64,000 nt of DNA from Microgenomates group bacterium (GTDB lineage Bacteria > Patescibacteriota > Microgenomatia > PFEM01 > JBNASD01), in assembly GCA_049720225.1 (NCBI GenBank), contig JBNASD010000001.1, forward strand, positions 100,733-164,732, read 5' to 3'. The notes below the pieces were generated by a model. The model was not told where the DNA came from, did no database searches, and worked only from the letters and a program-made list of their open reading frames with translations. Numbering within the stretch: position 1 is the first letter of the stretch; every line of letters starts with the position of its first letter. Position numbers and translations under genes: made by a program. Below, in pieces: positions 8,697 through 41,835 of the stretch.

Positions 8697-8727
8697 CTAT
8701 TATTATATCTTATATCAAGAAATTATA

Positions 8728-22524: not shown

Positions 22525-22571
22525 TAAAATTAAGTATAGCAAAAGAAAGGCGAACGAGTAAATAAAAAAAT

Positions 22572-22655
22572 ATGCCGGGAAGAGATAAATAAAAATAATA
22601 ATGGTGTGCTTCGCTTTGGAAGCTCCCCCCCAAAAAAACTATCTCTTCCCGGCAA
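22572..22655 (-). terminator. Nested-hairpin intrinsic terminator with a 15-bp outer stem and an inner GCTTC/GAAGC stem
   Basis: tgccgggaagagata...tatctcttcccggca lies directly downstream, on the minus strand, of the 22665..23006 gene. Confidence 0.5.
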
Positions 22656-22664
22656 ATAAAAATC

Positions 22665-23006
22665 TTACCCAGAGCAAATCGTCGCCATCGTGACGATTGC
22701 TCCAATTCCGAGAATAATCTGCCCCACGCGCAACAAAAACACACCCGGTATCCACAGGGCGTATTCATCATTCATTGCTGTCTCTACCGAAAATTTCCAT
22801 GGAGGCGCGCACACCACCGCGCCTTGCACACTCTTGACCAAATCCTTTTCGGAAGAACTGCTCTTTTCAATGATGACAAAAATGGTCCTTCCGGGCAAAA
22901 GGAGGCGTCTTCCCCTCCATGCGAGATTTATCAGGAATTGAGGGATAATTCCCAATTCCATGATCATCAATCCCACCAAGATCAAAATTATGCCGAAGCC
23001 TTCCAT
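22665..23006 (-). CDS. Small hypothetical membrane protein (113 aa), compositionally GC-rich
   Basis: A strong RBS 'aaaaaggaggg' sits 7 nt upstream of the ATG (MEGFGIILILVGL...). GC is about 48% versus about 32% in the flanks. It has two or three TM segments. Confidence 0.5.
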   Translation of the reverse strand: MEGFGIILILVGLMIMELGIIPQFLINLAWRGRRLLLPGRTIFVIIEKSSSSEKDLVKSVQGAVVCAPPWKFSVETAMNDEYALWIPGVFLLRVGQIILGIGAIVTMATICSG

Positions 23007-23170
23007 TTTCAAACCCTCCTTTTTTTAAATGTGCGGCTAATTTGAATTTTACCCCAAAACCAAAAAATATTCAACATTATAGGTTTAAAAATAAAATTTT
23101 GATTAGTATTAATAATTTTTTTCTGGTATAATATTTTGTGTTCTTTGAAAATTAAAGTTAATCCGATCGT

Positions 23171-23224
23171 GGGTCCGTATCCGCCAGCCGGCGGACAACT
23201 GGCGAACTTTTAAGCAGTTGTTAT
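23171..23224 (+). pseudogene. tRNA-Lys-derived fragment, 5' acceptor 9 nt plus anticodon-loop/3'-stem 14 nt with a GC-rich palindromic insert
   Basis: gggtccgta...cttttaagcagttg is identical to segments of the adjacent intact tRNA-Lys. It lacks the D- and T-arms. Confidence 0.5.
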
Positions 23225-23297
23225 GGGTCCGTAGCTCAGAGGTAGAGCAGCTGCCTTTTAAGCAGTTGGTCGAGCGTTCGATTCGCTCCGGACCCAC
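23225..23297 (+). tRNA. tRNA-Lys (anticodon TTT)
   Basis: GGGTCCGTAGCTCAGAGGTAGAGC...anticodon loop CUUUUAA...GTTCGATTC...CGGACCCA. Confidence 0.85.
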
Positions 23298-23318
23298 CCT
23301 ACCCTAGATCCACCTTTC

Positions 23319-23392
23319 GGCCCCGTCGTCTAGCGGCCTAGGACGTCAGCTTTTCAGGCTGAAGGTCGGGGGTTCGAATCCCCCCGGGGTCA
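23319..23392 (+). tRNA. tRNA-Glu (anticodon TTC)
   Basis: GGCCCCGTCGTCTAGCGGCCTAGGACG...anticodon loop UUUUCAG...GGTTCGAATCC...CGGGGTCA. Confidence 0.85.
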
Positions 23393-23449
23393 CTTTTTGA
23401 AAGCGGTGTCTTCTTAACAATCGGTTCCAAACTTTAAAGGAGGTGGCTT

Positions 23450-23668
23450 ATGTCTTCGAGATGTCCTGCTTGTGGTGGAACTGGCAGGCAGAAAGATGGC
23501 GAGTATCTTAAGGAAAGAGATTGTCGAGTTTGTGGAGGAACAGGAATATTTTCCTCCACATCAACTTCTGACGACAATTGTCTGAGGTGCGAAGGGAGAG
23601 GTTGGTATTTCAGCGATCAGGGTTTACCCACAATTTGTACCTGCAGGAGAGCACGAAAGAAAAAATAA
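23450..23668 (+). CDS. Small standalone zinc-finger protein with three DnaJ-type CxxCxGxG repeats
   Basis: Contains CPACGGTG, CRVCGGTG and CLRCEGRG, with the RBS 'aaaggaggtggctt' upstream of the ATG. It is GC-rich relative to the genome. Confidence 0.55.
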   Translation: MSSRCPACGGTGRQKDGEYLKERDCRVCGGTGIFSSTSTSDDNCLRCEGRGWYFSDQGLPTICTCRRARKKK

Positions 23669-23670
23669 AT

Positions 23671-23769
23671 AAAAAAGCCCGAAGTAATATGGAGGGTAAT
23701 CAAATAATGGAGCATAGCGCTCTACAATTTTATTTTGATTACCTTCTTTTAAAACTTCGGGCTTTTTTT
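23671..23769 (+). ncRNA. Structured element A: triple-nested hairpin (outer AGCCCGAAGT/ACTTCGGGCT, middle GGTAATCAAA/TTTGATTACC, inner GAGC-AUAGC-GCUC) ending in a T-run. It is a terminator or small-RNA candidate.
   Basis: Perfect inverted repeats with a T7 tract. Element B has the same architecture and the same AUAGC apical loop, with compensatory stem changes. Confidence 0.45.
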
Positions 23770-23817
23770 ATTTTTAACCACTTTTATTTGCAAATTATCC
23801 TATAATGTGATATAATA
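23770..23817 (+). promoter_or_regulatory. Promoter module copy 1: TTGCAA, a 17-nt spacer, then an extended -10 TGaTATAAT
   Basis: -35 at 23788-23793 and -10 at 23811-23816. A 55-nt block is nearly identical to 24389-24443. Confidence 0.55.
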
Positions 23818-23981
23818 GCCTTGATTTAAGATAAAAAAGAAATTGAATTTTTGTTCTTTGAAAATTTAAAAAAATTCTTTATCCGAATCGGTAACCTTTT
23901 GGGCATTAATAAAAAATTAATAAATTAGTGTTCAAAAAGTTGCCGATTCGGGCACAATCTTGGAGTTGGAGGTGAAGAAGA

Positions 23982-24293
23982 ATGGCGCTCCGATTATTGA
24001 TCCCCACAACAAGGTTTGCGATCGCACAGTGGTTGCCCCATGGAGAAGAGACACCGATAGTGGTGGTCGGAGGAAAGTGGAACAATGTCGTCATCAGGCA
24101 TAATCCAAAAGGGATGACGGGGCTACTCAGTATACAGAGGGGATTTCCCCTCTCCGTAAGGTCTCTCACGATAGTCGTAAACGGAGACCCAGCGAGGATC
24201 ACTTTCATCTTCTTGGAGCGTCTTCCAGACACAATCCACGTACCGGAGGAATTGAAGAGGTACCTGAAGTTTGAGCAGGTGGTGAAGAGGTAA
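23982..24293 (+). CDS. Hypothetical protein (103 aa), GC-rich
   Basis: RBS 'ttggaggtgaagaagaATG'. Flanked upstream by promoter module 1 and downstream by element B. The antisense 108-aa ORF is disfavoured because it lacks an RBS or terminator. Confidence 0.45.
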   Translation: MALRLLIPTTRFAIAQWLPHGEETPIVVVGGKWNNVVIRHNPKGMTGLLSIQRGFPLSVRSLTIVVNGDPARITFIFLERLPDTIHVPEELKRYLKFEQVVKR

Positions 24294-24295
24294 AC

Positions 24296-24396
24296 CGAGA
24301 AAGCCGGGAATAAAGAGGATATTTAACTCACCCCTGACATAGCGTCAGGAAAAAGGATGAGTTTTATATCCGATTTACACTTCCCGGCTTTTTTTA
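24296..24396 (+). ncRNA. Structured element B: nested hairpin (outer AGCCGGGAA/TTCCCGGCT, GGATAT/ATATCC, inner CCTGAC-AUAGC-GTCAGG) ending in a T-run
   Basis: Same topology and apical loop as element A, and immediately followed by promoter module copy 2. Confidence 0.45.
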
Positions 24397-24443
24397 TTTT
24401 TAACCACTTTTATTTGCAAATTATCCTATAATGTGATACAATA
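24389..24443 (+). promoter_or_regulatory. Promoter module copy 2: TTGCAA, a 17-nt spacer, then TACAAT
   Basis: -35 at 24414-24419 and -10 at 24437-24442. It differs from copy 1 by 1-2 nt. Confidence 0.5.
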
Positions 24444-24564
24444 TCCTTTACTATACATTTAAAAACAAAAGGTAAGATTTAATAATTATGGAAAGAAAAA
24501 GAGCATCCTTTATGGAGTTTTAGAGCGTATAATCGAAAGTGTCGGTATAATAGCAATAAATAGT

Positions 24565-25155
24565 TTGATAAATGACGCGCTCAAAACTTTAGAAAGAAAA
24601 AAAGATCTTTTTCAATCAAATTCGGCAGAAGAAGTCACGATAGAAAGTTTTTATAACAGTTTACTTAGTTTTTTCAAATTTTTTTCTAAAAAATCTTCTG
24701 GAAAATCTCCGGAAGAATTTTTAAAGCAAATATCTCAAGAGTGGAATAATGGCGCCAATAAGTTTACCGATTTAAATAAAGGAAAAATCGAAAGATTAGG
24801 ACAAATAATTATGGGTGGTTATAAGGGGTTGCTATGGTTATATAAAAACCCTTCTTGGCTAATTCATTTAATTGAATTAATGACTTGGGATTTATTTCAG
24901 CGTGTAGGAAAAGACCCTGACTCTAAATTATTTTTAATTTTGTTAACTGTCGGATTAGTTGAAGAAGAAGAACTCTCACTCCCTGAGCTTTATTCTGATA
25001 AACTAAAAGCAAAAGGGGAATATATAGCCTCCTTAATTAACTGCAATAAACCAGAAAGAGAGGAATCGCTTCGATTACCCGAATTAATTAAAAAAATTTT
25101 CTCTTCAGATTTACTAACTTACTCTCCTTCGGTTTTTGGTTATTCTTCAAATTAA
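24565..25155 (+). CDS. Hypothetical protein (about 196 aa, start uncertain)
   Basis: ORF downstream of promoter copy 2 with AT-rich, host-like composition. No recognisable motif. Confidence 0.35.
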   Translation: MINDALKTLERKKDLFQSNSAEEVTIESFYNSLLSFFKFFSKKSSGKSPEEFLKQISQEWNNGANKFTDLNKGKIERLGQIIMGGYKGLLWLYKNPSWLIHLIELMTWDLFQRVGKDPDSKLFLILLTVGLVEEEELSLPELYSDKLKAKGEYIASLINCNKPEREESLRLPELIKKIFSSDLLTYSPSVFGYSSN

Positions 25156-25240
25156 ATATTTCTTTAAAATTTTCTTCCCCAATAGCGTGTTTTGTTTATT
25201 TTTCGAAAAATAAAAAATTTTTAAATATAATTTTATAATA

Positions 25241-25356
25241 AAAAAACGCCTGAGGTTTTTTAAGTAAAGAGTTTTGATTTAAGATAAGAGTTGCTTAAAT
25301 TATAACTCTTATCTTTTTTTAACTCTTTACGACTTCAGGCGTTTTTTGTTTTTTTC
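25241..25356. terminator. Bidirectional nested-hairpin terminator between convergent genes
   Basis: Outer stem aaaacgcctgaggt/acttcaggcgtttt, middle GTAAAGAGTT/AACTCTTTAC, inner GATAAGAGTT/AACTCTTATC. There are T/A runs on both sides. Confidence 0.55.
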
Positions 25357-25366
25357 AGAGGTCCAA

Positions 25367-25831
25367 TTATCTTAAGACCCCCGAAAACAGGAGCAACAAC
25401 TTCAAGAGTAATGCTTGGATAAAAGACAACTTAGCAGGAAGCAGTTGCATTTCAACTGCCCTGCTAAATATATCCGGAATCGCCCAATTCCACAAAATCA
25501 TCGTCAAAACCACCGCCAAGAAGAAGAAACCGACCTTGGCAAATATCATAAAGAGGCGCCAACCAAAAGTTTCCTCTCCATCTTCATCATCTAGGGGTAG
25601 TCTCCCCATCCCCAATACCACAAGTAATAAACACGTCTTGATCGTTTGGGCTGTGGTTAATGTTGCGGGTATGATACCCGCATTAACCAAGGTTGGTAAA
25701 AACCTGGGCATCAGTTTTGCCCACACCCACTGGAATAAAAAGATAGCAATGAAGAAACACACGAAGTAGACTAAAGCCTTCCCCACAATCATTAATGCCA
25801 TTTCCCGAAGTTCTTCTGCTTTTTCGTTCAT
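25367..25831 (-). CDS. Hypothetical membrane protein (4 TM) with an acidic loop
   Basis: RBS 'ttggaggtgaaagATG' on the minus strand. Contains hydrophobic helices and the loop 'LDDEDGEETFGW'. Confidence 0.5.
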   Translation of the reverse strand: MNEKAEELREMALMIVGKALVYFVCFFIAIFLFQWVWAKLMPRFLPTLVNAGIIPATLTTAQTIKTCLLLVVLGMGRLPLDDEDGEETFGWRLFMIFAKVGFFFLAVVLTMILWNWAIPDIFSRAVEMQLLPAKLSFIQALLLKLLLLFSGVLR

Positions 25832-26313
25832 CTTTCACCTCCAAATTTAAAATGGGATTTCGGACACGAATAATTTTTAAAAGTGCAAAATACGATCCTT
25901 TTCCTAACGTATTAAATTATACCATTAAGAATTTAAATGTCAATATTATAGGATACTATAGTAAAAATTTCTTAACTGTTTATAACCCTTAAATAAAGTT
26001 ATAAAGACTTTAAATATAGAGAAAAATTAGAGTTTAAAATTATAATTCTTTAGAAATGGAAATGAAGAGAATAGCTTCAATTTAGACTTATATTGCAGGC
26101 TTTTTAAATTAGTAATGGAATTTTTTAAGCGTCTAAATCGGAGATTTCATAAATATGAAGAAAAAAGAAGTTATTATTAAAAATTTATTTTTTCCTAAAA
26201 TTTTTATGCAAAAAGAAAAAATAAATAAAAAATTTCAGATCAATAGTTAGTCTTTAATAATTTTTAATCTAAAAAATATTAGAAAAAAGAAATACCTTTC
26301 TTTTGGATGTTTT

Positions 26314-27241: not shown

Positions 27242-27388
27242 GAGGAAATTCTATCAAGAAAAAGAAAAAAATACAAGGGAAAAATTTATTGATACTATAA
27301 GTTGAAAATCCAAAAAATTTAAGCTATAATAATTTTCGGTACCTTGAAAGTAGTCGTTCGAACAAGTTTGTATTAAAGGAGGGAGAAA

Positions 27389-27592
27389 ATGTGGAGGCGT
27401 ACCGCTGAATGCGAGAAGAGCAGAAATGGACAATATTGTCCAAGGGGGTCTGAATGTCCAATGACGGGACGTCGGGTAGAAAAACACAGAGGTGGAAAGT
27501 GTAGGTTGGGACCATACATTAGAAATCCTGAATGCTGGAGGAGGGATGAAATGGATTTCCCTCCCTACTATGATTATGAGAGCGAGTTATAA
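27389..27592 (+). CDS. Small Cys-rich hypothetical protein (67 aa), GC-rich
   Basis: RBS 'aaggagggagaaaATG'. It has 5 Cys and Arg/Trp-rich segments, and is followed 20 nt later by the next gene. Confidence 0.45.
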   Translation: MWRRTAECEKSRNGQYCPRGSECPMTGRRVEKHRGGKCRLGPYIRNPECWRRDEMDFPPYYDYESEL

Positions 27593-27612
27593 CGTTAGGA
27601 GGAGGCTAGACT

Positions 27613-27840
27613 ATGAAATATACATATCGTACATCTAAAGGCGACGGATATACCTTAGTTTACGGTGAAGGAAAATTTGTAGAGGAAGTTAAATTTGAGA
27701 CTATGTGTCTCACTTTTGAGGAAATGGTAAGCCACCTCAAAAGAGAGCATGGAATAAAGCATCCGACGTTTTCGATTATCTACACGTCGAGGGGCAGGTT
27801 TTGGACGCCGGATGATGGAAAACATATAGTTCCGGCGTAA
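27613..27840 (+). CDS. Small hypothetical protein (75 aa), co-operonic with the 27389 gene
   Basis: RBS 'ttaggaggaggctagactATG'. Terminator D lies immediately downstream. Confidence 0.45.
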   Translation: MKYTYRTSKGDGYTLVYGEGKFVEEVKFETMCLTFEEMVSHLKREHGIKHPTFSIIYTSRGRFWTPDDGKHIVPA

Positions 27841-27846
27841 TGTAGG

Positions 27847-27937
27847 AAAAAGGGGGGAAGTTTTTTCCCAAAAAGGCATCAAGATTACTTGATGCTGTTC
27901 TTATAAGGTAAAAACTTCCCCCCTTCCCTTTTTTTAA
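27847..27937 (+). terminator. Nested-hairpin intrinsic terminator D
   Basis: Outer stem aaaaaggggggaagtttttt/aaaaacttcccccctt, inner GCATCAAG/CTTGATGC, then T7. Confidence 0.55.
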
Positions 27938-28331
27938 ATTCTAGATTTTTTTGTACTTGGTTGCGAATTCATTTCGCGAATTTTGACTAATTCTCTATTT
28001 AATTTTTTATTTTATGAATATTTTTTATTTTTTTATAAAATATTGGTATGTCTTTTTAATATCCCTTTTTTATTTCTAAGGTATCTTGCTAATTTTTATT
28101 CTTTATAATAACCCTACTGATAACACTAAAATCAAGTAAATTCTATCAAAGATAAAGAGAAATAAAAAAGAAAAGAGAGAATTTTTAATTTAAAATCCTA
28201 TAATGTTGAAATTATTGTTTTTTTTGATATAATATTGTTATTGGCACATTGACAAAAAGAAAATTCTCTCCAATTTTATTGGAGTTTAAATATAACATTC
28301 TCCCTATTTAACGCAAGACAGGAGGTGAATT

Positions 28332-28625
28332 ATGTTTCGGGCGATACTTGAGTTGTTTTGGTCAATTTTGAAGGGGTTGGTAAAGTTAGCATGGGGATTG
28401 ATAGTGATAGTTTCTGGACTCTTAGTTTTGATTGCTCTTTTCACTTGGGGCGGAGTGTTTACAGATTCTTCTATCCCGGGGCAGAATGCTGTTAATACGT
28501 TGTGGGGCGATATTGTGATATTCCCTACCACATGGGGAGATGCATCGGCCTACCAACCAACAGGGCTGGGTTTGGCTTTGTTGGTGGTGATAGTTTTCTT
28601 TGTTCTTTTGATTCTCGCCGGTTGA
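28332..28625 (+). CDS. Small membrane protein (97 aa, TM-loop-TM), GC-rich
   Basis: RBS 'gacaggaggtgaattATG'. It has two long hydrophobic helices around a Gly/Trp-rich loop. Confidence 0.5.
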   Translation: MFRAILELFWSILKGLVKLAWGLIVIVSGLLVLIALFTWGGVFTDSSIPGQNAVNTLWGDIVIFPTTWGDASAYQPTGLGLALLVVIVFFVLLILAG

Positions 28626-28644
28626 GTAAAGGAGGTGTTACGAT

Positions 28645-28918
28645 GTTTGATATTCCAGAAATTCCCGGAAAGGTAGTAGGATTGGCCATTTTGGCTTTTA
28701 TAGTGGTTTGTTTGGGAAGTATAATGCTTCTTTTCGGCGGGAATGTGGAAAAAAACCCGCTAGCGATCGCTATGGCAGATATTGGTGATTGGCTTACGCC
28801 GGGCGATACGGGAGTTTGTTACCCTTCCGATACTTTTGCGATCCGACATAATGGAGCGGCGTTCGTATTTACGGTTGGGGTGATACTTTTTATATTGATA
28901 CTCTTCTCGTTTAGATAG
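28645..28918 (+). CDS. Small membrane protein (91 aa, TM-loop-TM), a paralogue-like partner of the 28332 gene
   Basis: RBS 'gtaaaggaggtgttacgATG' sits 19 nt after the upstream stop. It has the same TM-loop-TM topology. Confidence 0.5.
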
Positions 28919-28929
28919 AGGAGAACATT

Positions 28930-29020
28930 GGGGGGGAAGAAAAAACTTTTAACAAGGTGTCACCAAATTTTTGCGGTGACAATCTTAAGAAAAAGTTTTT
29001 CTTCCCTCCCCCCTTTTTTT
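28930..29020. terminator. Bidirectional nested-hairpin terminator E between the 28645 gene and pyrG
   Basis: Outer stem gggggggaagaaaaaact/agtttttcttccctcccccc, inner GGTGTCACC/GGTGAC, then T-run. Confidence 0.55.
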
Positions 29021-29027
29021 AATTTTA

Positions 29028-30668
29028 TTACTTTTTAACCGCTTCCCTAATAAATTCCAAAAACAACGGATGAGGTTTTAAAAATAAAGATTTATATTCC
29101 GGATGAAATTGTGTTCCCACAAAAAAGGGATGATTAGGAATTTCGATTGCCTCTACTAATTTTCCATCAGGAGAAACTCCGCTAAAAACCATTCCCGCTT
29201 TTTTAAATTTTTCCCGGTATTGATTGTTAAACTCATAGCGGTGGCGATGTCTTTCATAAATAAATTTTAAATTTAAAATTTTAAATTTAAAATTGTTATG
29301 GTAGCATTTCCAAACCAAACTATCCCTTTTTAATTTGCACGGCCAAGCGCCCAAACGAATTGTTCCTCCAAATTGGCGTTTTTTTAAATATTTTTCTTGG
29401 TCAGGCATAATATGAATAACCGGATAAGGAGTTTGGGGGTTAACTTCGGTGGAATTAGCATCTTTTAAACCTAAAACATTTCTGGCAAATTCAATTACCG
29501 CCATCTGCATCCCAAAACAAAGACCTAAATAAGGAATTTTATTCTCCCGCGCGTATTGAACAACTTTAATTTTTCCTTCTACTCCCCGACTACCCCACCC
29601 TTGAGGAACAATAATTCCCTGACATTCTTTTATTTTTTCCGGTAATCCTTCTTTTTCAATTTTTTCGGTGTCAAACCAAATAATTTCCGGCCAAACATTA
29701 TTTGCCCAACTAGCGTGTTTAACTGCTTCCACAACACTTACATACGAATCCTCCAAACAAAAATCCCCGGAAGTATAATATTTTCCGGCAATCCCAATTT
29801 TTACTTTTCTTTTTAAATTTTTAATTTTTTTGATTAAATTTCGCCATTCCTTTAAATTTCTTCTTCTTCCTTTAATTTTTAACTTTTTCATTATTCTTTC
29901 AGTAATTTTTTGTTTTTCCAAAATTAAGGGAACTTCATAAATGTTTTCCACGTCAGGATTGGCAAAAATATCTTCTGGTTCTAACGAACAGGCAAAGGCA
30001 ATTTTTTCTCGCCGGCGGAAGTCAACTTCTTTTTCCGCCCGACAAACAATAATATCCGGTTGAATTCCTAAAGAATGAAGCGCCCAAACTGATTGTTGAA
30101 GCGGTTTGGTTTTCATTTCTCCCAAAAAATGAGGAATCGGTAAATAACCCACATGAACAAACAAAACATTTTCTTTATATTTAATTTTCATTCTCCTGGC
30201 CGCCTCAAAAAACATAATATTTTGGTATTCTCCTACCGTTCCTCCAAATTCAACAATAACAATTTCTGCCTTTTTTCCTACTTTTTCTAAACGATTAATA
30301 ATTTCTTGAGGAATATGTAAATAGGCATCAACGCATTTTCCATCATATTCTAAGGCTCTTTCCCGGTCTAGAACACTTTTATATACCTGTCCTCCTGTCA
30401 TATAATTTTCTTTAGTTAGGGAAATTCCCAAAAATCTTTCGTAATGACCCAAATCTTGATCACATTCCATTCCATCGTCTAAAACAAAAATTTCTCCGTG
30501 TTCCAAAGGATTCATTGTGCCCGCGTCTAAATTTAAATAAGGATCGCATTTTACCGGTAAAACTTTAAAACCGCGAGATTGTAAAAGAAGAGAAATTGAA
30601 GCGGTGGTAATTCCCTTTCCTAATCCGGAAATTACCCCTCCAGAAACAAAAATAAATTTAGGGTTCAT
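29028..30668 (-). CDS. pyrG: CTP synthase
   Basis: 'KFIFVSGGVISGLGKGITTASI' is the N-terminal synthetase signature. The C-terminus has a GATase ('GLCFGMQ') region. Confidence 0.9.
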   Translation of the reverse strand: MNPKFIFVSGGVISGLGKGITTASISLLLQSRGFKVLPVKCDPYLNLDAGTMNPLEHGEIFVLDDGMECDQDLGHYERFLGISLTKENYMTGGQVYKSVLDRERALEYDGKCVDAYLHIPQEIINRLEKVGKKAEIVIVEFGGTVGEYQNIMFFEAARRMKIKYKENVLFVHVGYLPIPHFLGEMKTKPLQQSVWALHSLGIQPDIIVCRAEKEVDFRRREKIAFACSLEPEDIFANPDVENIYEVPLILEKQKITERIMKKLKIKGRRRNLKEWRNLIKKIKNLKRKVKIGIAGKYYTSGDFCLEDSYVSVVEAVKHASWANNVWPEIIWFDTEKIEKEGLPEKIKECQGIIVPQGWGSRGVEGKIKVVQYARENKIPYLGLCFGMQMAVIEFARNVLGLKDANSTEVNPQTPYPVIHIMPDQEKYLKKRQFGGTIRLGAWPCKLKRDSLVWKCYHNNFKFKILNLKFIYERHRHRYEFNNQYREKFKKAGMVFSGVSPDGKLVEAIEIPNHPFFVGTQFHPEYKSLFLKPHPLFLEFIREAVKK

Positions 30669-33600
30669 TAATTTTTTCCTCCAATAATTTTTTCAATTTC
30701 TTCTTTTAATCTTTGATTATAACTAATTCCAAAAGGCAATACCATTCTTTTTTCTTTTTCCCCATTAACAAAAACCAAAACTACTTTTTCCTCTCCCGGA
30801 TTTTCTTTTAAAAGCTTATTTAAAGCTACCAATTTTTGGGGAGAAATTCGGGCGGGAATTCTTATTTCTCTTTGATCTTCCTCTTTTTTTTCTTCTGCCA
30901 TTTCCTCAGAAAACAGAACTACCCGATTAGCCAATAAAGAAGTTTTCTCCTCTCTTGATTCAACCACCCCTTCAATTAAAACTACTTTCTCTTTCAATAA
31001 AAACTGACGACATTCCCTATAGACCTTAGGAAAAACAACGACTTCAATTTCTCCAGTTTCATCTTGAAGAGTAACAAAGGCCATTTCTTGATTGGAACTT
31101 TTGGTTAAAACAATTTTTAAATTGCTAATTATTCCTCCTAATTTTACTTTTTGACTTTGGACATCTCGATCAATCTGAAAGATTTTATGACTTCTTAATC
31201 TTTCTAATTTTTCCAATACCCGGGTAAGCGGATGTTCGGTAAGATAAAAACCCAAAAGTTCTTTCTCTAAACTTAAAAGTTCTTCTTGACTAAATTCTTC
31301 TATTTCCGGTAAATTATCTTTTACTTCTAAATTTTGAGGAGAAGAATTTTGCTCAAAAAGACTCACCTGACCATTATTTTTTTCTTTTTGAAAACTTAAA
31401 GCTTTTTCCCGAATGGTATCTAAATTAGCTAGCATTGCCGCTCTTTTGCCAAAACGGTCCATTGCCCCTGCTTTAATTAAACTTTCTAAAACTTTTTTAT
31501 TAACCTTTTGTCCATCTACTCGTTGACAAAAGTCAGTTAAAGAAGTAAATTCCCCCCCTAATCTTCTGGCACTTAAAATTGCCCCAATCGCCGCTTCCCC
31601 CACATTTTTAATCGCCCCCAAACCAAATCGAATTGCCTTCCCATTTAAAGAACTAGGTTCATTTTCAATAGTAAATCCCGCCTCTGATTTATTAATATCC
31701 GGAGGTAAAACAATAATTTTCATTCGCCGGCATTCTTCCACTGCCAACGCCACTTTTTCATCACGAATCGGACCGGAAGCACCACTACTTTCCGCGGTTA
31801 ATAACGCCGCCATAAATTCTACCGGAAAATGAGTTTTTAAATAAGCGGTTTGATAAGCAACCATTGCGTAAGAAGTAGAATGAGCTTTATTAAAACCGTA
31901 ACTAGCAAATCTTTCAATTAAAGCAAAAACATCTTTGGCTACTTGTTTAGGATATCCTTTTTCTACTGCCTGACGGATAAACTTTTTCTTTTCCTCTTTC
32001 ATAATTTCTTTTTTCTTTTTACCAATTGCCCGCCGAAGCATATCCGCCTCTCCCAAAGTGTAGCCGGCCATTACGTGAGCGATTTGTAAACATTGTTCCT
32101 GATAAACGGCAATTCCGTAGGTTTCTTCCAAAATTGGTTTTAAATCCGGATGGGGATAATTAATTTTTTCTGGATGGTGTTTTCCATAGATAAATTCATC
32201 AATAAATTGCATTGGTCCGGGTCGATACAAAGCAATCATCGCTACCAAGTCAGAAAATTTTGACGGGCCTAATTTTTTGGCTAATCGGCGCATTCCCCCA
32301 CTTTCTAATTGAAACACTCCCGTTGTTTCTCCTCGGGCAATCATTGCCAATGTTGGTTTATCATCTAAAGGAATTTCCGAAATATCAATTCTTTTTCCTT
32401 GAGTACTTTGAATATAAGCTAATGCTTTTTCTAAAATAGTGAGATTTCTGAGTCCTAAAATATCAATTTTCAAAAGACCAATTGCTTTATCGGCCCCAGC
32501 CGCATTAATATCTAAGCAATACATATCGTATTGCGTCATTATTCCTTCCCCACGAGTAACTTTTTGCAGGGGAACATATTCTGTTAAAGGCTTATCGGCA
32601 ACAATTACTCCCGCCGCATGGGTGGAAGCATGACGAACTGTTCCCTCCACTTTCATCGATAAATCCAAAAGTTTTTTATATTTCGGTTCTTTATAAAAAT
32701 TCGCTAATTCGGGAACGGCCTCAAGCGCTTCTTTTATTTTCATTCCCGGCGGAATAAGTTTGGCAATTTTATCGGGTTCAGAATAGGGCATCCCTAAAAC
32801 CCGGCCAATATCTCTCACTGCCTCCCGCGCTTTCATCACATTAAAAGTGACAATTTGCGCCACTTTATCTTGACCATACTTTTGGGTAATGTAATTAATT
32901 ACCTCATCTCTTCTTTCGTCAGCAAAGTCTAAATCGATATCCGGCGGCGACGGTCTTTCCGGGTTTAAAAATCGTTCAAAAGGAAGATTATGTTTTAAAG
33001 GATCAATGGAGGTGATTCTTAAAATATAAGAAACTAGTGACCCCGCCGCCGACCCTCTTCCCGGCCCAACTCTAATTCCCTGACTTTTTGCCCAGTTAAC
33101 TAAATCTTGAACAATTAAAAAGTAAGTAGCAAATCCCTTTTTACAGATTACTTCTAGTTCATAATCCATTCTTTGTTTAATTTCCGGGGTAATTTTTTCA
33201 AATCTTTTTTTCACTCTTTCATAAGTCAGTTCTTTTAAATATTCCTCGGCGGTTTTTCCTTCCGGTAAAGGATAATTAGGTAAAATCCAGTTTCCCAAAG
33301 AAATTTCCAAATGACACTGCTCAGCAATTTTTAAAGTATTTTCCAAAGCTTCGGGAAAATCGGCAAAAAATTCTTCCATTTCCTTGGGAGAGCGTAAATA
33401 AAAATCAGGAGAATCAATCATGGTAATTCGGTCCTTATCGGCAATTTTTTTCTGAGTTTGCACCGCCAATAAGGCATCTTGAGCTTCGGCATCTTCTGGT
33501 TCGACATAATGAATATCATTGGTCGCAATTAAAGGAATTCCTAATTTTCTTGATAAGGCAATTAATTTTTGATTAGCTTTTTCTTGATTTTTAATTTTGG

Positions 33601-34132
33601 GATGAGGTTGAATTTCCAAATAAAAATCTTTTCCAAAAATATCTAAAAATTCTTTTGCTTTTTTTTCTGCTTTTTGGTCTTCTCCCAAAAGAAGTAATTG
33701 GGGAATTTCTCCATCTAAACAAGCAGAAGAAGCAATTAATCCTTGGTGATATTTTTTAAGAACTTCCATATCAATTCGGGGTTTATAATAAAAGCCTTCT
33801 AAATGAGCAATGGTAATTAGCTTAAGAAGATTTTTATAACCAACCTCATTTTTAGCTAACAACACCAAATGATAGCGGTCAGAGTCAATATTGGCTTGCT
33901 TATCAAAGCGAGAACGCGCCGCCATGTAAGTTTCTACTCCAATAATTGGTTTAATTCCTATTTCCTTAGCGGTGGTATAGAATTTAATTGCTCCATACAT
34001 TACCCCGTGGTCAGTTAAAGCCAAGGCAGGCATTCCCAATTCTTTGGCTTTGGTCAGTAATTTATCAATTTTTGCTAGACCATCCAAAAGAGAATATTCC
34101 GAATGGACATGAAGATGAACAAAATTTCCCAT
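30668..34132 (-). CDS. dnaE: DNA polymerase III alpha subunit
   Basis: The PHP domain reads 'FVHLHVHSEYSLLDG'. The protein is 1154 aa, with the polymerase core and a C-terminal OB-fold. Confidence 0.9.
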   Translation of the reverse strand: MGNFVHLHVHSEYSLLDGLAKIDKLLTKAKELGMPALALTDHGVMYGAIKFYTTAKEIGIKPIIGVETYMAARSRFDKQANIDSDRYHLVLLAKNEVGYKNLLKLITIAHLEGFYYKPRIDMEVLKKYHQGLIASSACLDGEIPQLLLLGEDQKAEKKAKEFLDIFGKDFYLEIQPHPKIKNQEKANQKLIALSRKLGIPLIATNDIHYVEPEDAEAQDALLAVQTQKKIADKDRITMIDSPDFYLRSPKEMEEFFADFPEALENTLKIAEQCHLEISLGNWILPNYPLPEGKTAEEYLKELTYERVKKRFEKITPEIKQRMDYELEVICKKGFATYFLIVQDLVNWAKSQGIRVGPGRGSAAGSLVSYILRITSIDPLKHNLPFERFLNPERPSPPDIDLDFADERRDEVINYITQKYGQDKVAQIVTFNVMKAREAVRDIGRVLGMPYSEPDKIAKLIPPGMKIKEALEAVPELANFYKEPKYKKLLDLSMKVEGTVRHASTHAAGVIVADKPLTEYVPLQKVTRGEGIMTQYDMYCLDINAAGADKAIGLLKIDILGLRNLTILEKALAYIQSTQGKRIDISEIPLDDKPTLAMIARGETTGVFQLESGGMRRLAKKLGPSKFSDLVAMIALYRPGPMQFIDEFIYGKHHPEKINYPHPDLKPILEETYGIAVYQEQCLQIAHVMAGYTLGEADMLRRAIGKKKKEIMKEEKKKFIRQAVEKGYPKQVAKDVFALIERFASYGFNKAHSTSYAMVAYQTAYLKTHFPVEFMAALLTAESSGASGPIRDEKVALAVEECRRMKIIVLPPDINKSEAGFTIENEPSSLNGKAIRFGLGAIKNVGEAAIGAILSARRLGGEFTSLTDFCQRVDGQKVNKKVLESLIKAGAMDRFGKRAAMLANLDTIREKALSFQKEKNNGQVSLFEQNSSPQNLEVKDNLPEIEEFSQEELLSLEKELLGFYLTEHPLTRVLEKLERLRSHKIFQIDRDVQSQKVKLGGIISNLKIVLTKSSNQEMAFVTLQDETGEIEVVVFPKVYRECRQFLLKEKVVLIEGVVESREEKTSLLANRVVLFSEEMAEEKKEEDQREIRIPARISPQKLVALNKLLKENPGEEKVVLVFVNGEKEKRMVLPFGISYNQRLKEEIEKIIGGKN

Positions 34133-34133
34133 A

Positions 34134-35492
34134 TTAATTTTTTAATTTCTTTTTAATTTCTTCTTCTATTTGTTTGGGGTTTGCCTGCCCTTTTGTTTTC
34201 GCCATAATTTGGCCAATTAAAAATTGAATAGCATTAATTTTTCCTTTTTTAAAATCCGCAACCGCTTTTTGATTTTCTTCTAAAACTTGGTTAATTATTT
34301 TTTCTAATTCTTCCTTTTTGATGGTTATTTTTTTCTTGCTTTTTTGTCTTTGTAACTGCTTAATTAATTGTCCAGGAGAAACTTTTTTAATATCTACTTT
34401 TTTATTAATTATAACATTAGCAATTTCTTGCAATTTTATTTCTTTTTTTGCCAATTTTGTCGTTTCCTCAAAATAATCAGCGGTGAATTTCTCCGCGGTT
34501 AAAATTCTTGCCGCGTAATCAGAAAGATGATAAACTTCGACAAACTTTTTTCTTTTTTCTTGGGGAAGTTCAGGAAGAAGTTTTTTAATTTTTTCAATTT
34601 CTTCTTTATTAAATCTTATTGGCGGAATATCCGGCTCAGGAAAATAGCGATAATCAGAGGCTTCTTCTTTTTCTCGCTGTAAAACAGTAATTTTTCTTTT
34701 TTCATCCCAACCGCGGGTGGTTTTATTTCCCGGTTTTTTAGTTTCCCCGGTCTTTAAAAATTCTTTTTTTTGTCTTTCAATCTCATAATCAATTGCTTTT
34801 TTAACAAAGCTAAAAGAATTAATATTTTTCAATTCTACCAGCGGTGTATATAATTTTTTTCCGTTTTTAATCACTTCCAAATTAACCGTTGGCTCACAGC
34901 GCATTTGTCCTTTTTCCATATCCGCATCGGCAATTTCTAGCCAGCGGACTAATTGTTGAAGTGATTTTAAAAATTCTTGAATCTCTTGGCTGTCATTAAA
35001 ATCTGGTTCGGTAACAATTTCTACTAAGGGTACTCCACTACGATTAAAATCAATTAAAGAGCAACTTTCTTGACCAATTTTTTGGTGGATTAATTTTCCG
35101 GTGTCTTCCTCTAAATGAACTCGGCGGATTCTAATTTTCTTTTTTCTTTCTAAAAGTTCAAATTCTCCATTTTTATTTAGCGGTAAATCATATTGACTGA
35201 TTTGATAGCCTTTGGGTAAGTCTGGATAAAAATAATTTTTTCGGTCAAATTTAGAAAATAATGCCGGTTGACAATTTAAGGCTAAGCCTAATTTAATCGT
35301 TGCCTCAATTGCTTTTTGGTTAGGATAAGGAAGAGCGCCCGGTAAACCTAAACATACCGGACAAACTAACGTATTGGGTGGTTTACCAAAATATTGCGCT
35401 GAACAACCACAAAACATTTTGCTTTTTGTTTTCAGTTCGATATGAACTTCTAATCCAATTATCGGTTTAAATCTTATGGTTGATGAGTTCAT
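34134..35492 (-). CDS. gatB: Asp-tRNA(Asn)/Glu-tRNA(Gln) amidotransferase subunit B
   Basis: 'IGLEVHIELKTKSKMFCGC' is the GatB N-terminus. A C-terminal YqeY-like helical tail is present. Confidence 0.85.
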   Translation of the reverse strand: MNSSTIRFKPIIGLEVHIELKTKSKMFCGCSAQYFGKPPNTLVCPVCLGLPGALPYPNQKAIEATIKLGLALNCQPALFSKFDRKNYFYPDLPKGYQISQYDLPLNKNGEFELLERKKKIRIRRVHLEEDTGKLIHQKIGQESCSLIDFNRSGVPLVEIVTEPDFNDSQEIQEFLKSLQQLVRWLEIADADMEKGQMRCEPTVNLEVIKNGKKLYTPLVELKNINSFSFVKKAIDYEIERQKKEFLKTGETKKPGNKTTRGWDEKRKITVLQREKEEASDYRYFPEPDIPPIRFNKEEIEKIKKLLPELPQEKRKKFVEVYHLSDYAARILTAEKFTADYFEETTKLAKKEIKLQEIANVIINKKVDIKKVSPGQLIKQLQRQKSKKKITIKKEELEKIINQVLEENQKAVADFKKGKINAIQFLIGQIMAKTKGQANPKQIEEEIKKKLKN

Positions 35493-36711
35493 AGGGTTCT
35501 TTTAAAGAAAAAGAAAATAATATTCCTGCAAAAATTCCTATTATTATTAATACCAACTTAATTCCCAATAAATCAACTATCACTCCAATCATTAAAATGG
35601 GTAAAATTGATCCTAAAGTAATTAAAAAACCTAAAACCCCATAAATTCTTCCATAAAAATCTTTAGGAGTATTTTCTTGAATAAAAGTTTGCGAAGGAAC
35701 TACTAAAAAAACAAAAGATAATCCCAAAAAGAAAGCAATAATTGCCGTTAAAATAATCTTAAAATTTCCATTAAATAAAGGAATTATTAATCCCAAAAAA
35801 AGAAAAGAAAAAGTAGAAAAACCTAAACCAGAAGAAATTAAAGTCTTTTTTCTTATTTTTTCGGTTAATCTTTTAGAAGCCAAAATTCCTCCAATTAATG
35901 CTCCTAAACCAGCTGGAGAAATTAAGGCTAAACCAGAGTCAACCACCGGAATCTTTAAAATATCCTGAGAAAATATGGGAACAATCACCGCCAAAATACT
36001 AACAATTATTTGGGCACAAACCAAAATTGCTAAAGGAAAAAGAATCAAAGGGTTGTTTTTAAAATAATAATACCCCTCTTTTATTTTTTCAAAAAAAATT
36101 AAAGGAGTAACTTCTTTTTCCTTCGTTTTTTTAATTCCTGAAGGTAGAAAATAAACAGAAAGGGTAGCTAAAAGCAAAAAAATTCCGCATAAGAAAAAAA
36201 CATTTTGGGTCTCTCCCAAAAGACGAATTAACGGCCCAGCCAAACTGAAACCAACTAAAAAGGTAGCATTTACAGTAAACATAAAAATAGTATTGGCAAC
36301 TGGATAAAGCTTCCGAGGAATTAAAAATGGCAAAGTCGAACCTTCAGCTGGTAAATAAAGTTGGTTAAATAAAGAATAAAGAAAAATAAGCGAATAAATA
36401 ACTAGTGGTTTAATTTTTCCACTAATATATAAAAAGGCAATTATTGCTTGAATAAAGTTAGTAATCAAAAGAATTTTTCTTTTGTCGAGTAAATCGACTA
36501 CCACCCCAGAAAATGGACCTAAAAGTAAAGCGGGAATAGCGTAAAAAAACCAAATTAAAGAAACCGCCGCCGTTGAAGAGGTTTTTTCAAAAATAATGAC
36601 CGTTAAAGTAAAATTAATTAAATTAACGGTAATTTGCGAAAGCAATTGGGAAAACCACAAAAAAACAAATTTCGTTTTTAAAACTTCCCAAAAATAATTT
36701 TTCATTGCCAA
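35467..36711 (-). CDS. MFS transporter
   Basis: Has 12 predicted TM helices and an MFS motif region, 'GPFSGVVVDLLDKRK'. Confidence 0.65.
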   Translation of the reverse strand: MAMKNYFWEVLKTKFVFLWFSQLLSQITVNLINFTLTVIIFEKTSSTAAVSLIWFFYAIPALLLGPFSGVVVDLLDKRKILLITNFIQAIIAFLYISGKIKPLVIYSLIFLYSLFNQLYLPAEGSTLPFLIPRKLYPVANTIFMFTVNATFLVGFSLAGPLIRLLGETQNVFFLCGIFLLLATLSVYFLPSGIKKTKEKEVTPLIFFEKIKEGYYYFKNNPLILFPLAILVCAQIIVSILAVIVPIFSQDILKIPVVDSGLALISPAGLGALIGGILASKRLTEKIRKKTLISSGLGFSTFSFLFLGLIIPLFNGNFKIILTAIIAFFLGLSFVFLVVPSQTFIQENTPKDFYGRIYGVLGFLITLGSILPILMIGVIVDLLGIKLVLIIIGIFAGILFSFSLKEPYELINHKI

Positions 36712-38105
36712 TCCTCCTCAATTTTTTTCCCAATCTGAAAAAGCAATTCCTCTTTAAATTGAGGAGCAATAAGTTGAACTCCTACCGGTAAATTATCAAT
36801 TAGTCCTACTGGAATGCTTATTCCCGGTAAACCAGCTAAACTAGCGGGAATAGTAAAAATATCCGAAAGATACATTTGTAAAGGATTGCTAATTTTTTCT
36901 CCTAATTTAAACGACAAACTAGGAGAAACCGGCGTTAAAATTAAATCCACTTTTTCAAATGCTTTTTGGAAATCTTGTCTAATTAAAGTCCTTACTTTCA
37001 TTGCCTGAAGGTAATAAGCATCATAATAACCAGCGGAAAGAACATAAGTTCCTAACATTATTCTTCTTTTGGCTTCTGCCCCAAATTTTTCTCGGCCAAA
37101 ACCAAATCTGATTCCATCGTATCGAGCTAAATTTGAAGACACTTCTGCTGGTTGAATAATATAATAAACGGAGACCGCATATTTCGTTAAAGGTAAAGAA
37201 ATCTCTTTAATTTTTACTCCCTTTTTTTCCAATAACTTCGCCGTTTCTAAAACTCTTTTTTCAATTCTTTTATCAATTCCTTTAATAAAATATTCTTTAG
37301 GAATTCCTATTTTTAATCCTTTTATCGGTTTTTTCATTTCAGAAAGATAATCCGGGACTGGTAAAGGAGAAGTGGTGGCATCGTTTTCATCTTTTCCCGC
37401 GGTAATTTTTAAAACTAAAGCGGAATCAGTAACATCCTTGGTAAAATGACCAATCGTGTCTAAAGAAGAAGCCATGGCGATTACCCCAAATCGCGATACC
37501 CGTCCATAACTTGGTTTTAATCCCACCACTCCACAAAAACCTGCCGGTTGCCTAATCGAACCGCCGGTATCAGTCCCGGTAGCAATTAACGCCATCTTTC
37601 CGGCAATTGCCACCGCCGAACCACTACTGGAACCACCAGGAACGCGGGTTAAATCGTAAGGGTTTTTAGTTGGTCCAAAATCAGAATTTTCTCCCGATGA
37701 GCCGTGCCCCCAAGCATCACAATTAGCTTTTCCGACAATAATTGCTCCTGCCTCTTTTAATTTTTTTACCACCGTCCCATCGTAGGGGGGAATCCAGTCT
37801 TCTAAAACTTTTGAGCCCGCGGTCGTTCTTATTCCTTCGGTAACAAATAAATCTTTATGAACAACGGGAACTCCTAACAGCGGAAATTTTTCAATTAATT
37901 TTTCGTTCCCCTGTTTTTTAATTAATAAATCCCATTTTTTAGCTTCCGTTTTTGCCTCCTTGAAACAAGGAGTAATTAAAGCATTTAATTGGGGATTTAG
38001 TTTTTCTATTTTTTCTAAAAAAGCACTAATTATTTCTTGGCAAGAAATTTCTTTCTTTTTAAGTTTTTCTTGAAGTTGGAAAATCGTTAAGTCGGCAAGG
38101 TCCAT
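36702..38105 (-). CDS. gatA: Glutamyl-tRNA(Gln) amidotransferase subunit A
   Basis: Has the amidase signature 'GGSSSGSAVAIA' and the catalytic 'DTGGSIRQPA'. Confidence 0.9.
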   Translation of the reverse strand: MDLADLTIFQLQEKLKKKEISCQEIISAFLEKIEKLNPQLNALITPCFKEAKTEAKKWDLLIKKQGNEKLIEKFPLLGVPVVHKDLFVTEGIRTTAGSKVLEDWIPPYDGTVVKKLKEAGAIIVGKANCDAWGHGSSGENSDFGPTKNPYDLTRVPGGSSSGSAVAIAGKMALIATGTDTGGSIRQPAGFCGVVGLKPSYGRVSRFGVIAMASSLDTIGHFTKDVTDSALVLKITAGKDENDATTSPLPVPDYLSEMKKPIKGLKIGIPKEYFIKGIDKRIEKRVLETAKLLEKKGVKIKEISLPLTKYAVSVYYIIQPAEVSSNLARYDGIRFGFGREKFGAEAKRRIMLGTYVLSAGYYDAYYLQAMKVRTLIRQDFQKAFEKVDLILTPVSPSLSFKLGEKISNPLQMYLSDIFTIPASLAGLPGISIPVGLIDNLPVGVQLIAPQFKEELLFQIGKKIEEDWQ

Positions 38106-38111
38106 TTTTAT

Positions 38112-38399
38112 TTATTTTTCTAAAATTGCCTTTACTTTAAAAAATCCTTTAACTTTTGCTTTGCCTTCCCGAAGGGCTACTTGGGAAGATAAACCAGGTT
38201 TAACTTCGTCTGGTCGAAAAACATTTTCTAAAGCAGTTACTTGAGCCGTTGGTTCAACCTCTTTAGTGTTCAACTTCCTTAAAACTCTGATGTGGTTTAA
38301 TATTTCTGATAACTGGCGCGAATAGATTTCTAATTCCTTGGCAGTCAAAGATAAACACGCCAGTTTAGCAATATGTTTTACCTGGGCTTTAGTTAACAT
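38112..38399 (-). CDS. gatC: Glutamyl-tRNA(Gln) amidotransferase subunit C
   Basis: It is 95 aa, with 'VKHIAKLACLSLTAKELEIYSRQLSEIL' typical of GatC. It is positioned gatC-gatA. Confidence 0.8.
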   Translation of the reverse strand: MLTKAQVKHIAKLACLSLTAKELEIYSRQLSEILNHIRVLRKLNTKEVEPTAQVTALENVFRPDEVKPGLSSQVALREGKAKVKGFFKVKAILEK

Positions 38400-38406
38400 T
38401 TATTTT

Positions 38407-39303: not shown

Positions 39304-39325
39304 TTCCTTTTCCTCCTTTTTTATT

Positions 39326-39916: not shown

Positions 39917-39954
39917 TTTTTTTCACCTCCTTTCTTGACTGCTCACTTATTACT

Positions 39955-41790: not shown

Positions 41791-41835
41791 AAAAATTGAC
41801 TGTTTCTCAATCTTTTGTTAATATTATTTTAAATT

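Follow-up and report, generated by a model that had tools for sequence, protein, structure and literature searches.

What is the role of a long hairpin that is fused directly to a promoter-like block and occurs twice, a few hundred nucleotides apart, in the genome of an uncultured Microgenomates group bacterium? The stretch investigated (the window, 64,000 nt) corresponds to positions 100,733 to 164,732 of the forward strand of contig JBNASD010000001.1 (NCBI GenBank assembly GCA_049720225.1), and all coordinates given here refer to it. The feature comes from this one metagenome-assembled genome, and functions at the RNA level are read from the sequence. The two hairpins were designated as H1 and H2, and the promoters predicted in the adjoining blocks as P1 and P2. 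Each unit probably consists of a long Rho-independent terminator in three tiers and, directly adjoining it, a sigma-70 promoter; the two units are putative paralogous compound signals that would insulate acquired monocistronic genes. The function is most likely ordinary, a stop-and-restart punctuation, and the form unusual, namely long tiered hairpins in islets of acquired orphan genes.

The two repeated units

The features given in a preliminary description of this locus were all found where it had placed them. The spacing of the two units, put there at about 630 bp, was 626 nt. The promoter halves, described as nearly identical, shared 53 identical nucleotides (23760–23812 and 24386–24438), followed by two mismatches up to about 23822/24448. 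The whole direct repeat measured 91 nt with 85% identity at the spacing of 626 nt, and outside the 53-nt block the similarity fell off gradually on either side. A 39-nt core of the block had exactly two copies in the window, with 0 expected by chance. The duplicated hairpin-plus-block feature is real and beyond chance. An exact repeat of 53 nt could in principle confuse small-k assembly, and the unique sequence surrounding it argues against an artefact.

Both units were located on the plus strand in islet 1 (22535–26313, with genes on both strands), which is the entire interval from ruvC to the MBL-fold gene. A second islet (islet 2, 27250–29020) consists of two small-gene units between rplS (L19) and pyrG. 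The last gene before H1 was ZnF72 (ACPLKP_00755, 23450–23668), encoding a 72-aa CxxCxGxG zinc-ribbon protein. Unit 1 comprised the 86-nt three-tier hairpin H1 (23677–23762), the proposed terminator of the tRNA-Lys/tRNA-Glu/ZnF72 transcript, and block 1 (23760–23822), with the predicted promoter P1 for B103. The gene B103 (ACPLKP_00760, 23982–24293), an orphan gene (ORFan) of 103 aa, was framed by both modules. Unit 2 comprised the 86-nt three-tier hairpin H2 (24303–24388), the proposed terminator of B103, and block 2 (24386–24448), with the predicted promoter P2 for C196 (ACPLKP_00765, 24565–25155), a 196-aa ORFan located 3' of P2.

Structure of H1 and H2

The cores of H1 and H2 were each exactly 86 nt long, from GCC to GGC, and were built in three tiers: a GC-rich base, an AU-rich middle with internal loops, and a short GC-rich apical stem closing an AUAGC pentaloop. 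The stems quoted in the preliminary description were correct, both the outer ones (AGCCCGAAGT/ACTTCGGGCT in unit 1 and AGCCGGGAA/TTCCCGGCT in unit 2) and the inner ones (GAGC/GCTC and CCTGAC/GTCAGG, respectively), as was the common apical loop AUAGC (23714–23718 in H1, 24339–24343 in H2). In the folded RNA, H1 had an outer stem GCCCGAAGT/ACTTCGGGC, an AU-rich middle stem, and the apex GGAGC-AUAGC-GCUCU; H2 had an outer stem GCCGGGAA/UUCCCGGC and the apex CCUGAC-AUAGC-GUCAGG. Pairing of the A-run with the U-run lengthened the base of both hairpins to 98–107 nt in total, H1 then covering 23668–23772.

The minimum free energy (MFE) of the plus-strand RNA was −46.6 kcal/mol for H1 and −48.7 kcal/mol for H2. 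The fold z-scores were −10.3 and −9.0, respectively, and none of 200 dinucleotide shuffles folded equally well. H1 contained 42 pairs (13 G-C, 3 G-U) and H2 contained 38 pairs (16 G-C, 2 G-U), while the opposite strands folded with −39.3 and −43.1 kcal/mol, respectively; the G-U pairs gave the plus-strand RNA 5–7 kcal/mol more stability than its complement. Since G-U pairs favoured the plus-strand RNA in H1 and H2, and also in H3 and HL described below, they point to selection on RNA and not on DNA cruciforms.

By their fold energies and G-C pairs, both hairpins had the stable GC-rich stem-loop of a Rho-independent terminator. The stem base ended in GGGC/CGGC followed by TTTTTTTATTTTT in both units, so that U7 stood directly after the stem. 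The position was that of a transcript 3' end: with their A-run extensions, the hairpins began 4–10 nt past the stop codons of ZnF72 (23668) and B103 (24293). A simple terminator scan reported just the inner mini-hairpin of H1.

Predicted promoter blocks P1 and P2

Block 1 contained the last 3 nt of the hairpin, U7-A-U5, the −35 hexamer TTGCAA (23788–23793), a 17-nt spacer, and the extended −10 element TGATATAAT (23808–23816), with the transcription start of P1 predicted at about 23823. In block 2, the −35 hexamer TTGCAA was located at 24414–24419 and the extended −10 element TGATACAAT at 24434–24442. Both blocks thus had the composition of a sigma-70 promoter with an extended −10, namely both hexamers, a spacer within 16–18 nt, and TG at −15/−14. 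The pattern TTGCAA-17-TAYAAT occurred in the window just at P1 and P2 (TATAAT and TACAAT, respectively, with TG at −15/−14). The element TGATATAAT was also present upstream of the tRNA cluster (8722–8730), of m1 (28225–28233), and of tRNA-Lys in the relative L077, and because of this recurrence P1 and P2 look like the strong-promoter consensus of the lineage.

The 12-mer ATCCTATAATGT, with at most one mismatch, had five copies in the window, against 0.31 expected by chance. These copies (23074–23085 and 25943–25954 on the minus strand; 23797–23808, 24423–24434, and 28195–28206) were all at islet promoters, two of them in the P1 and P2 spacers and three immediately 5' of the −35 hexamer for the 115-aa open reading frame (ORF) of islet 1, for D154, and for m1. 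The 12-mer may stem from a common ancestry of the promoters, or it may be a site for a common regulator. For D154, a perfect TTGACA-16-TATAAT promoter was predicted.

A search with the exact block revealed no match in the GTDB species genomes or IMG/VR and one chance match in the JGI metagenomes, these being collections without the source genome. A scan of IMG/VR with a 15-nt motif gave single chance matches only, and the core CCTATAAT of the promoter motif had no copy in the syntenic DNA of the relatives L077–L085. Two 22-mers, TTTGTGTTCTTTGAAAATTAAA (23135–23156) a short way downstream of the tRNA-Lys promoter and TTTTTGTTCTTTGAAAATTTAA (23848–23869) likewise downstream of P1, were identical at 20 of 22 positions; the 22-mer was not conserved in the tRNA leader of L077, and it may be a shared leader/operator motif or a product of chance.

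Relationship between H1 and H2

RNAalifold analysis showed 27 column-congruent pairs between H1 and H2, of which 9 were altered on both sides. The two hairpins shared the 7-nt apex C-AUAGC-G at equal distance from the base, an equal core length, and the base motif. Their sequence identity was 55%, no higher than that of H0 with H2 (57%) or of H1 with H3 (57%); among the hairpin pairs of the window, identity ranged from 39 to 57% with none standing out. The preliminary description had taken the covariation as an argument for a selected RNA structure. The comparison comprises two sequences, and the structure was derived from the same two, so the covariation is weak evidence.

When a covariance model (R1) of H1 and H2 was run on the window and on about 565 kb of DNA from relatives and other Patescibacteria, no additional strong member emerged. 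Beyond the training pair, its matches in the window were H3 (E about 1e-3) and H0 (E 0.39), both weak. In Rfam searches at gathering and at permissive thresholds, tRNAs alone passed, and the hairpins gave chance-level matches to microRNA precursors. The hairpins are not a recognisable stand-alone RNA family.

The same length, apex, and base motif, the congruent pairs, and the contiguity with the duplicated block suggest that H1 and H2 are paralogues. Since the block was identical at 53 of 53 positions and the hairpins diverged by about 45%, the two halves of the units have different histories. The block looks like a tract that was recently duplicated or gene-converted, with identity ending near the start site, as in promoter propagation. 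The hairpin halves may be older paralogues or may come from different sources; they would have kept length, base motif, and apex while the stems diverged by paired changes.

Other long hairpins in the window

A scan of the window for long single hairpins found, apart from tRNAs, seven of 69–107 nt, all located at 22.5–29.0 kb and inside the two islets. Five of them, designated as H0, HL, H3, H4, and H5, had gone unmentioned in the preliminary description. The MFEs of the seven ranged from −35.6 to −48.7 kcal/mol. Six were terminator-like, with a U-run at gene ends, and HL had no U-run. The six terminator-like hairpins had a common base (GC-clamp and GAAG on one arm, CTTC and GC-clamp on the other) and unrelated interiors. 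The AUAGC apex was confined to H1 and H2, the loops of the other five being unrelated.

The hairpin H0 (22573–22654, minus strand, 82 nt, GCCGGGAAGAGAUA/UAUCUCUUCCCGGC followed by a U-run) was located after the 115-aa membrane ORF at 22665–23012 and upstream of ruvC. H3 (25241–25347, plus strand), located between C196 and D154, which are convergent, was a nested hairpin of 107 nt (CGCCUGAGGU/ACUUCAGGCG) with an MFE of −48.3 kcal/mol, a z-score of −10.3, and an inner 13-bp hairpin with its own U7; its A-run and U-run give it a bidirectional form. H4 (27850–27925, plus strand), nested and 76 nt long (GGGGGGAAGU/ACUUCCCCCC), had its U7 five nt further downstream; it followed the two-gene unit 27389–27840 and folded better on the opposite strand. 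H5 (28931–29013, plus strand), an 83-nt nested hairpin GGGGGGGAAG.../...CUUCCCUCCCCCC with U7, followed the membrane-protein pair 28332–28918 and was convergent with pyrG. H4 and H5 were considered as a second congruent pair and rejected; they have the common base and the U-run but lack the in-register alignment of H1 with H2.

The hairpin HL (23883–23951, plus strand) was 69 nt long with 28 bp, including 5 G-U pairs. It was located in the leader of B103, of about 160 nt, and did not cover the ribosome-binding site; its MFE was −35.6 kcal/mol on the plus strand versus −25.8 kcal/mol on the opposite strand. As it is 10 kcal/mol more stable on the plus strand, HL is probably an RNA-level element of the 5' untranslated region.

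The two units of islet 2 started with a similar motif AG(G/T)AAATTCTATCAA (27243–27282 and 28135–28174) and ended in similar C-rich hairpin arms followed by T7 (27919–27951 and 29004–29036), with unrelated genes between them, which parallels H1 and H2.

In a backbone stretch of 20 kb (29100–49000), 16 canonical terminator-like sites were found versus 17.6 expected, so there was no excess. Recognisable intrinsic terminators in the window are essentially confined to the islets. Several convergent gene pairs of the backbone overlapped or nearly abutted.

Genes of the islets

Database comparison showed that B103 and C196 match the NCBI entries ACPLKP_00760 and ACPLKP_00765, and that D154 is ACPLKP_00770. 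The GC content at third codon positions (GC3) was 0.16–0.30 in conserved housekeeping genes and 0.4–0.63 in several islet genes (B103, 0.63; the 115-aa membrane ORF, 0.58; D154, 0.52; the 75-aa ORF at 27613–27840, 0.41). B103 had a GGAGG ribosome-binding site, and its GC pattern by codon position was that of a coding gene derived from a GC-richer source. A structured RNA in the GC-rich stretch 23952–24299 was considered and rejected: the fold z-score was −0.1, by which the B103 RNA is not a structured RNA, and the stretch had a coding GC pattern, a ribosome-binding site, and a protein annotation at NCBI.

No homologue of B103 was found in two exhaustive protein searches, in which the sole other match was marginal (E 3.8e-4). 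C196, an ORFan with host-like composition, had no homologue either. Each window protein present in the protein collection was the sole member of its 90% cluster. BLASTP among the islet proteins, including ZnF72, B103, and C196, gave no significant match. ZnF72 had weak matches to Anti-TRAP and DnaJ_CXXCXGXG below the cut-off, which is a zinc-ribbon signal, and in the viral comparison it matched by the zinc-finger motif only. It is probably co-transcribed with the two tRNAs, no promoter being evident in the 56-nt gap after tRNA-Glu. A Pfam and PHROG scan of the islet ORFs other than the islet-2 pair m1/m2 and c67 revealed no recombinase, integrase, or transposase and gave weak unrelated matches. 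A phage origin was rejected, as there was no DNA match to phage records, no meaningful PHROG match, and no viral relative of D154.

Five small ORFs had good ribosome-binding sites: a Cys-rich 67-aa ORF (27389–27592), a 75-aa ORF (27613–27840), two membrane proteins of 97 and 91 aa (28332–28625 and 28643–28918), and the 115-aa membrane protein (22665–23012). They were absent from the protein collection as exact sequences and may be unannotated or annotated with other start codons.

Comparison with relatives

Relatives were found via RuvC and comprised nine contig sets with 74–86% RuvC identity. They kept the backbone gatB-dnaE-...-rplS-MBL-[tRNA-Glu, tRNA-Lys]-ruvC-holA-PPDK-enolase. In the closest relative, L077 (86%), the MBL-ruvC interval was 273 nt long with tRNA-Glu and tRNA-Lys alone, versus 3.8 kb in the window; other relatives carried a GIY-YIG gene, a glycosyl hydrolase, or other hypothetical genes there. 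Because its gene content differs among relatives, the interval is a variable spot. Islet 2 had no counterpart in L077 and L084, the two relatives with contigs covering rplS; both had a different large gene directly upstream of rplS. About 133 kb of syntenic DNA of the relatives contained no islet-style long hairpins; it held two short hairpins, one tied to the tRNA-Lys footprint described below and one at the size threshold.

Directly upstream of tRNA-Lys, a pseudo-tRNA-Lys half (23169–23223) was found with the acceptor start GGGTCCGTA, the hairpin TCCGCCAGCCGGCGGA, and the anticodon-loop copy CTTTTAAGCAGTTG. A tRNA-Lys fragment with TCCGCCAG(C/T)(C/T)GGCGGA was also present in L077 (2790–2830), L080 (1400–1820), and L084 (9560–9975), and in L080 and L084/L178 it flanked a GIY-YIG gene between two tRNA-Lys copies. 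The fragment looks like the footprint of a GIY-YIG element targeting tRNA-Lys. Integration at the 3' end of tRNA-Glu was rejected, as the window had no second copy of the tRNA 3' end. An exact 21-mer, AAAGAAAAAATAAATAAAAAA, was present at 23656–23676 (the end of ZnF72, just before H1) and at 26212–26232 (about 80 nt from the MBL-fold gene). Its two copies enclose 2556 bp, from H1 through the D154 promoter. The 21-mer is of low complexity, with a rough chance estimate of about 0.02, and could be an insertion boundary.

Proposed function as terminator and promoter

According to the proposed mechanism, the plus-strand RNA would fold into the 86-nt hairpin of 38–42 bp, and its GC-rich base followed by U7 would stop transcription; the upstream A-run would give the hairpin the form of a bidirectional terminator. 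The U/A-rich tail would at the same time be the upstream region of a sigma-70-type promoter (TTGCAA, 17 nt, TGnTAYAAT), from which transcription would restart about 55 nt later. Unit 1 would end the tRNA-Lys/tRNA-Glu/ZnF72 transcript, and P1 would start the B103 mRNA through the 160-nt leader with HL. Unit 2 would end the B103 mRNA, P2 would start the C196 mRNA, and H3 would stop both C196 and D154. The local set of six long-hairpin terminators would insulate small, strongly signalled ORFan genes, mostly of foreign composition, which would have been inserted on either side of the tRNA pair and beside rplS in a very compact Microgenomates backbone. Strong terminators on strongly promoted inserts would protect the neighbouring essential operons ruvC, rplS-MBL, and pyrG.

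Among the possibilities raised in the preliminary description, that of terminator-promoter cassettes framing small GC-rich genes fits all the sequence evidence (hairpins after stop codons, U7, and the −35, 17-nt spacer, and extended −10). The option of small RNAs gained no positive evidence. The att-like option agreed with the locus in that direct repeats flank the B103 unit, but the definitions of attC and of miniature inverted-repeat transposable elements (MITEs) or REPINs did not match.

Several points weigh against a terminator fused to a promoter. Sequence is the sole basis for inferring termination, initiation, and the order of evolutionary events; the structures, motifs, positions relative to genes, and absence from relatives are observations. 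The cores of 86 nt are larger than a canonical terminator (stem-loop of at most 59 nt), with the loop of 5 nt inside the limit of 3–13 nt, and stem-loops of 86–107 nt in general exceed the canonical limit of 59 nt (PMC12207403). A short GC stem would suffice to terminate, so termination does not account for the extra length, and the common AUAGC loop has no role in termination. Pairing of the A-run with the U-run, which extends the stem, could lower termination efficiency. The −35 hexamer TTGCAA agrees with the consensus at 4 of 6 positions.

Comparison with known elements

TransTermHP limits the stem-loop to 59 nt and the loop to 3–13 nt, and the reported median terminator stems are 20–35 nt (PMC12207403). 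The hairpins of the islets resemble Rho-independent terminators in the GC-rich stem base, the immediate U-tract, and the upstream A-tract, and in their location after stop codons or between convergent genes. They differ in size (72–107 nt, 28–42 pairs) and in their three tiers, in the GAAG/CTTC and GC-clamp base shared by six hairpins, and in the loop shared by H1 and H2. In a full-text literature search, 'intrinsic terminator' and 'Candidate Phyla Radiation' did not occur together in any paper.

Putative mobile promoters are defined by more than 50 nt at 80% identity or above, non-homologous flanking genes, and a position at −50 to −150 of the start codon (PMC3488235), and two-member near-identical families were the commonest case in the survey (Matus-Garcia, Nijveen, van Passel 2012, PMC3488235). 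The repeat described here had 85% identity over 91 nt with an identical core of 53 nt, and the flanking coding sequences (ZnF72, B103, and C196) were non-homologous by BLASTP. The block was located at −222 to −170 relative to the start codon of B103 and at −179 to −127 relative to that of C196, and only the latter overlaps the range of −50 to −150. The likeness thus lies in a two-member family of near-identical promoter DNA between non-homologous genes. The differences are that the repeat includes the terminator tail of the preceding gene, that the copies are adjacent (626 nt) and not dispersed, and that they are further from the start codons.

Phage morons are reportedly self-standing units of promoter, gene, and terminator that deviate in composition and sit as insertions between conserved genes. 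The islets likewise contain units of one or two genes that have atypical GC3 and carry promoter-like and terminator-like signals of their own; at the corresponding backbone position, relatives lack them. Unlike morons, they lie in a chromosomal backbone (rplS, the MBL-fold gene, tRNAs, and ruvC) with no phage genes or similarity.

The hairpins are like integron attC sites in being imperfect palindromes, which in attC measure 57–141 nt, after small ORFan genes, with ends more conserved than the interior. However, the arms GCCCGAAGT/ACTTCGGGC and GCCGGGAA/TTCCCGGC had no AAC/GTT cores, the neighbours were housekeeping or ORFan genes with no integrase or attI nearby, and the units had their own promoters and occurred on both strands. 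The G-U pairs point to RNA and not to single-stranded DNA, U-runs are present, and the orientation is mixed.

REPIN/REP, ERIC, and Neisseria Correia elements are intergenic palindromes of about 100 nt; they can act as terminators, as RNase III substrates, or as sources of promoter hexamers. The likeness to the islet hairpins is that of intergenic hairpins carrying regulatory signals. Those elements occur in many copies conserved throughout, whereas here 6–7 copies with unrelated interiors were confined to two islets; the pairwise identity was 39–57%, and the covariance model matched H3 and H0 weakly. REPINs are hairpin-forming intergenic repeats (PMC8049555). Template switching (PMC8794818) is a plausible way for such long stems to grow and stay paired.

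Alternative explanations

It is unlikely that the locus is chiefly a scar of cassette recombination, in which the B103 unit (leader, gene, and H2) entered as a separate DNA with its own hairpin and one block copy, and a single crossover within the block left the flanking direct repeats; terminator and promoter activity would then be real but secondary. Identity limited to a direct repeat of 53–91 nt that exactly flanks a 626-bp unit with an ORFan of foreign composition would suit such an event, and the hairpins beside the repeat are strongly diverged, as expected from different lineages. The shared start motif, C-rich 3' arm, and U7 of the islet-2 units around unrelated genes, the variation of the MBL-RuvC interval among relatives, and the exact 21-mer pair enclosing 2556 bp of islet 1 are also consistent with it. 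However, no recombinase, integrase, or transposase was identified in the islets (m1/m2 and c67 being outside the scan), the block had two copies only in 64 kb and none was found in genome, metagenome, and viral collections, and its similarity fades gradually on both sides without a sharp end. A broader form of this idea is very unlikely, namely that the hairpin-promoter junctions are exchange sites of an undescribed Microgenomates small-gene cassette system with the hairpin as both recombination structure and insulator; self-contained units of promoter, ORFan, and GAAG/CTTC-GC-clamp hairpin could then have been inserted beside tRNA and ribosomal-protein genes. A DNA-level role is also very doubtful in the form of palindromes acting as single-stranded hairpins or cruciforms, be they MITE/REPIN-like, attC-like, or neutral products of template switching. 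With its flanking A and T runs, the shared GC-clamp and GAAG...CTTC base looks like the terminal inverted repeats of an element with a variable interior. Long perfect stems can arise and be preserved by template switching (PMC8794818), and H4 folds better on the opposite strand. Against this, the interiors were not conserved between copies, target-site duplications were not seen, the arms lacked the RYYYAAC/GTTRRRY core sites of integrons, and the cassettes carry their own promoters. The G-U pairs of H1, H2, H3, and HL would be A-C mismatches on the other DNA strand, and the terminator-like copies all stood at gene ends with a U-run.

The G-U pairs, which point to selection at the RNA level, suit another reading, in which the hairpins are functional RNAs: a stable 3'-derived small RNA, an RNase III processing or stabilising element, or a protein-binding stem-loop recognised via C-AUAGC-G, with termination incidental. 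The 7-nt apex was identical and equally far from the base in both, although the rest of the hairpins diverged by about 45%, and the helices would be long enough for a double-strand RNase. Such a role is nevertheless highly improbable, as the apex occurred in these two hairpins only, the other five loops were unrelated, no Rfam family matched, and the covariance model had no members elsewhere; moreover, two sequences cannot establish selection on a loop. That the module encodes a small hydrophobic peptide is hardly credible. Two ORFs (23707–23805, 32 aa; 24357–24431, 24 aa), both ending AFFIFNHFYLQIIL, read through the identical block in the same frame, and their ATGs are preceded by purine-rich stretches. 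Their shared C-terminus is an automatic by-product of identical T-rich DNA, for which this reading was rejected; their N-terminal parts are unrelated and of unequal length, the terminator that they span would cut them, and their start codons are buried in the stem.

Implications

Apparent covariation is weak evidence of a new RNA family when it is seen between just two paralogous hairpins. Terminator finders capped near 59 nt would miss signals such as these, and such hairpins would mark recently acquired islets. If each unit is indeed a long terminator fused to a promoter, a genome-reduced bacterium of the Candidate Phyla Radiation would equip acquired orphan genes with their own strong promoters and very long fail-safe terminators. 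A backbone with almost no intergenic space would thereby be protected, and the locus would show, in one small but concrete case, how a genome insulates foreign genes and wires them in.

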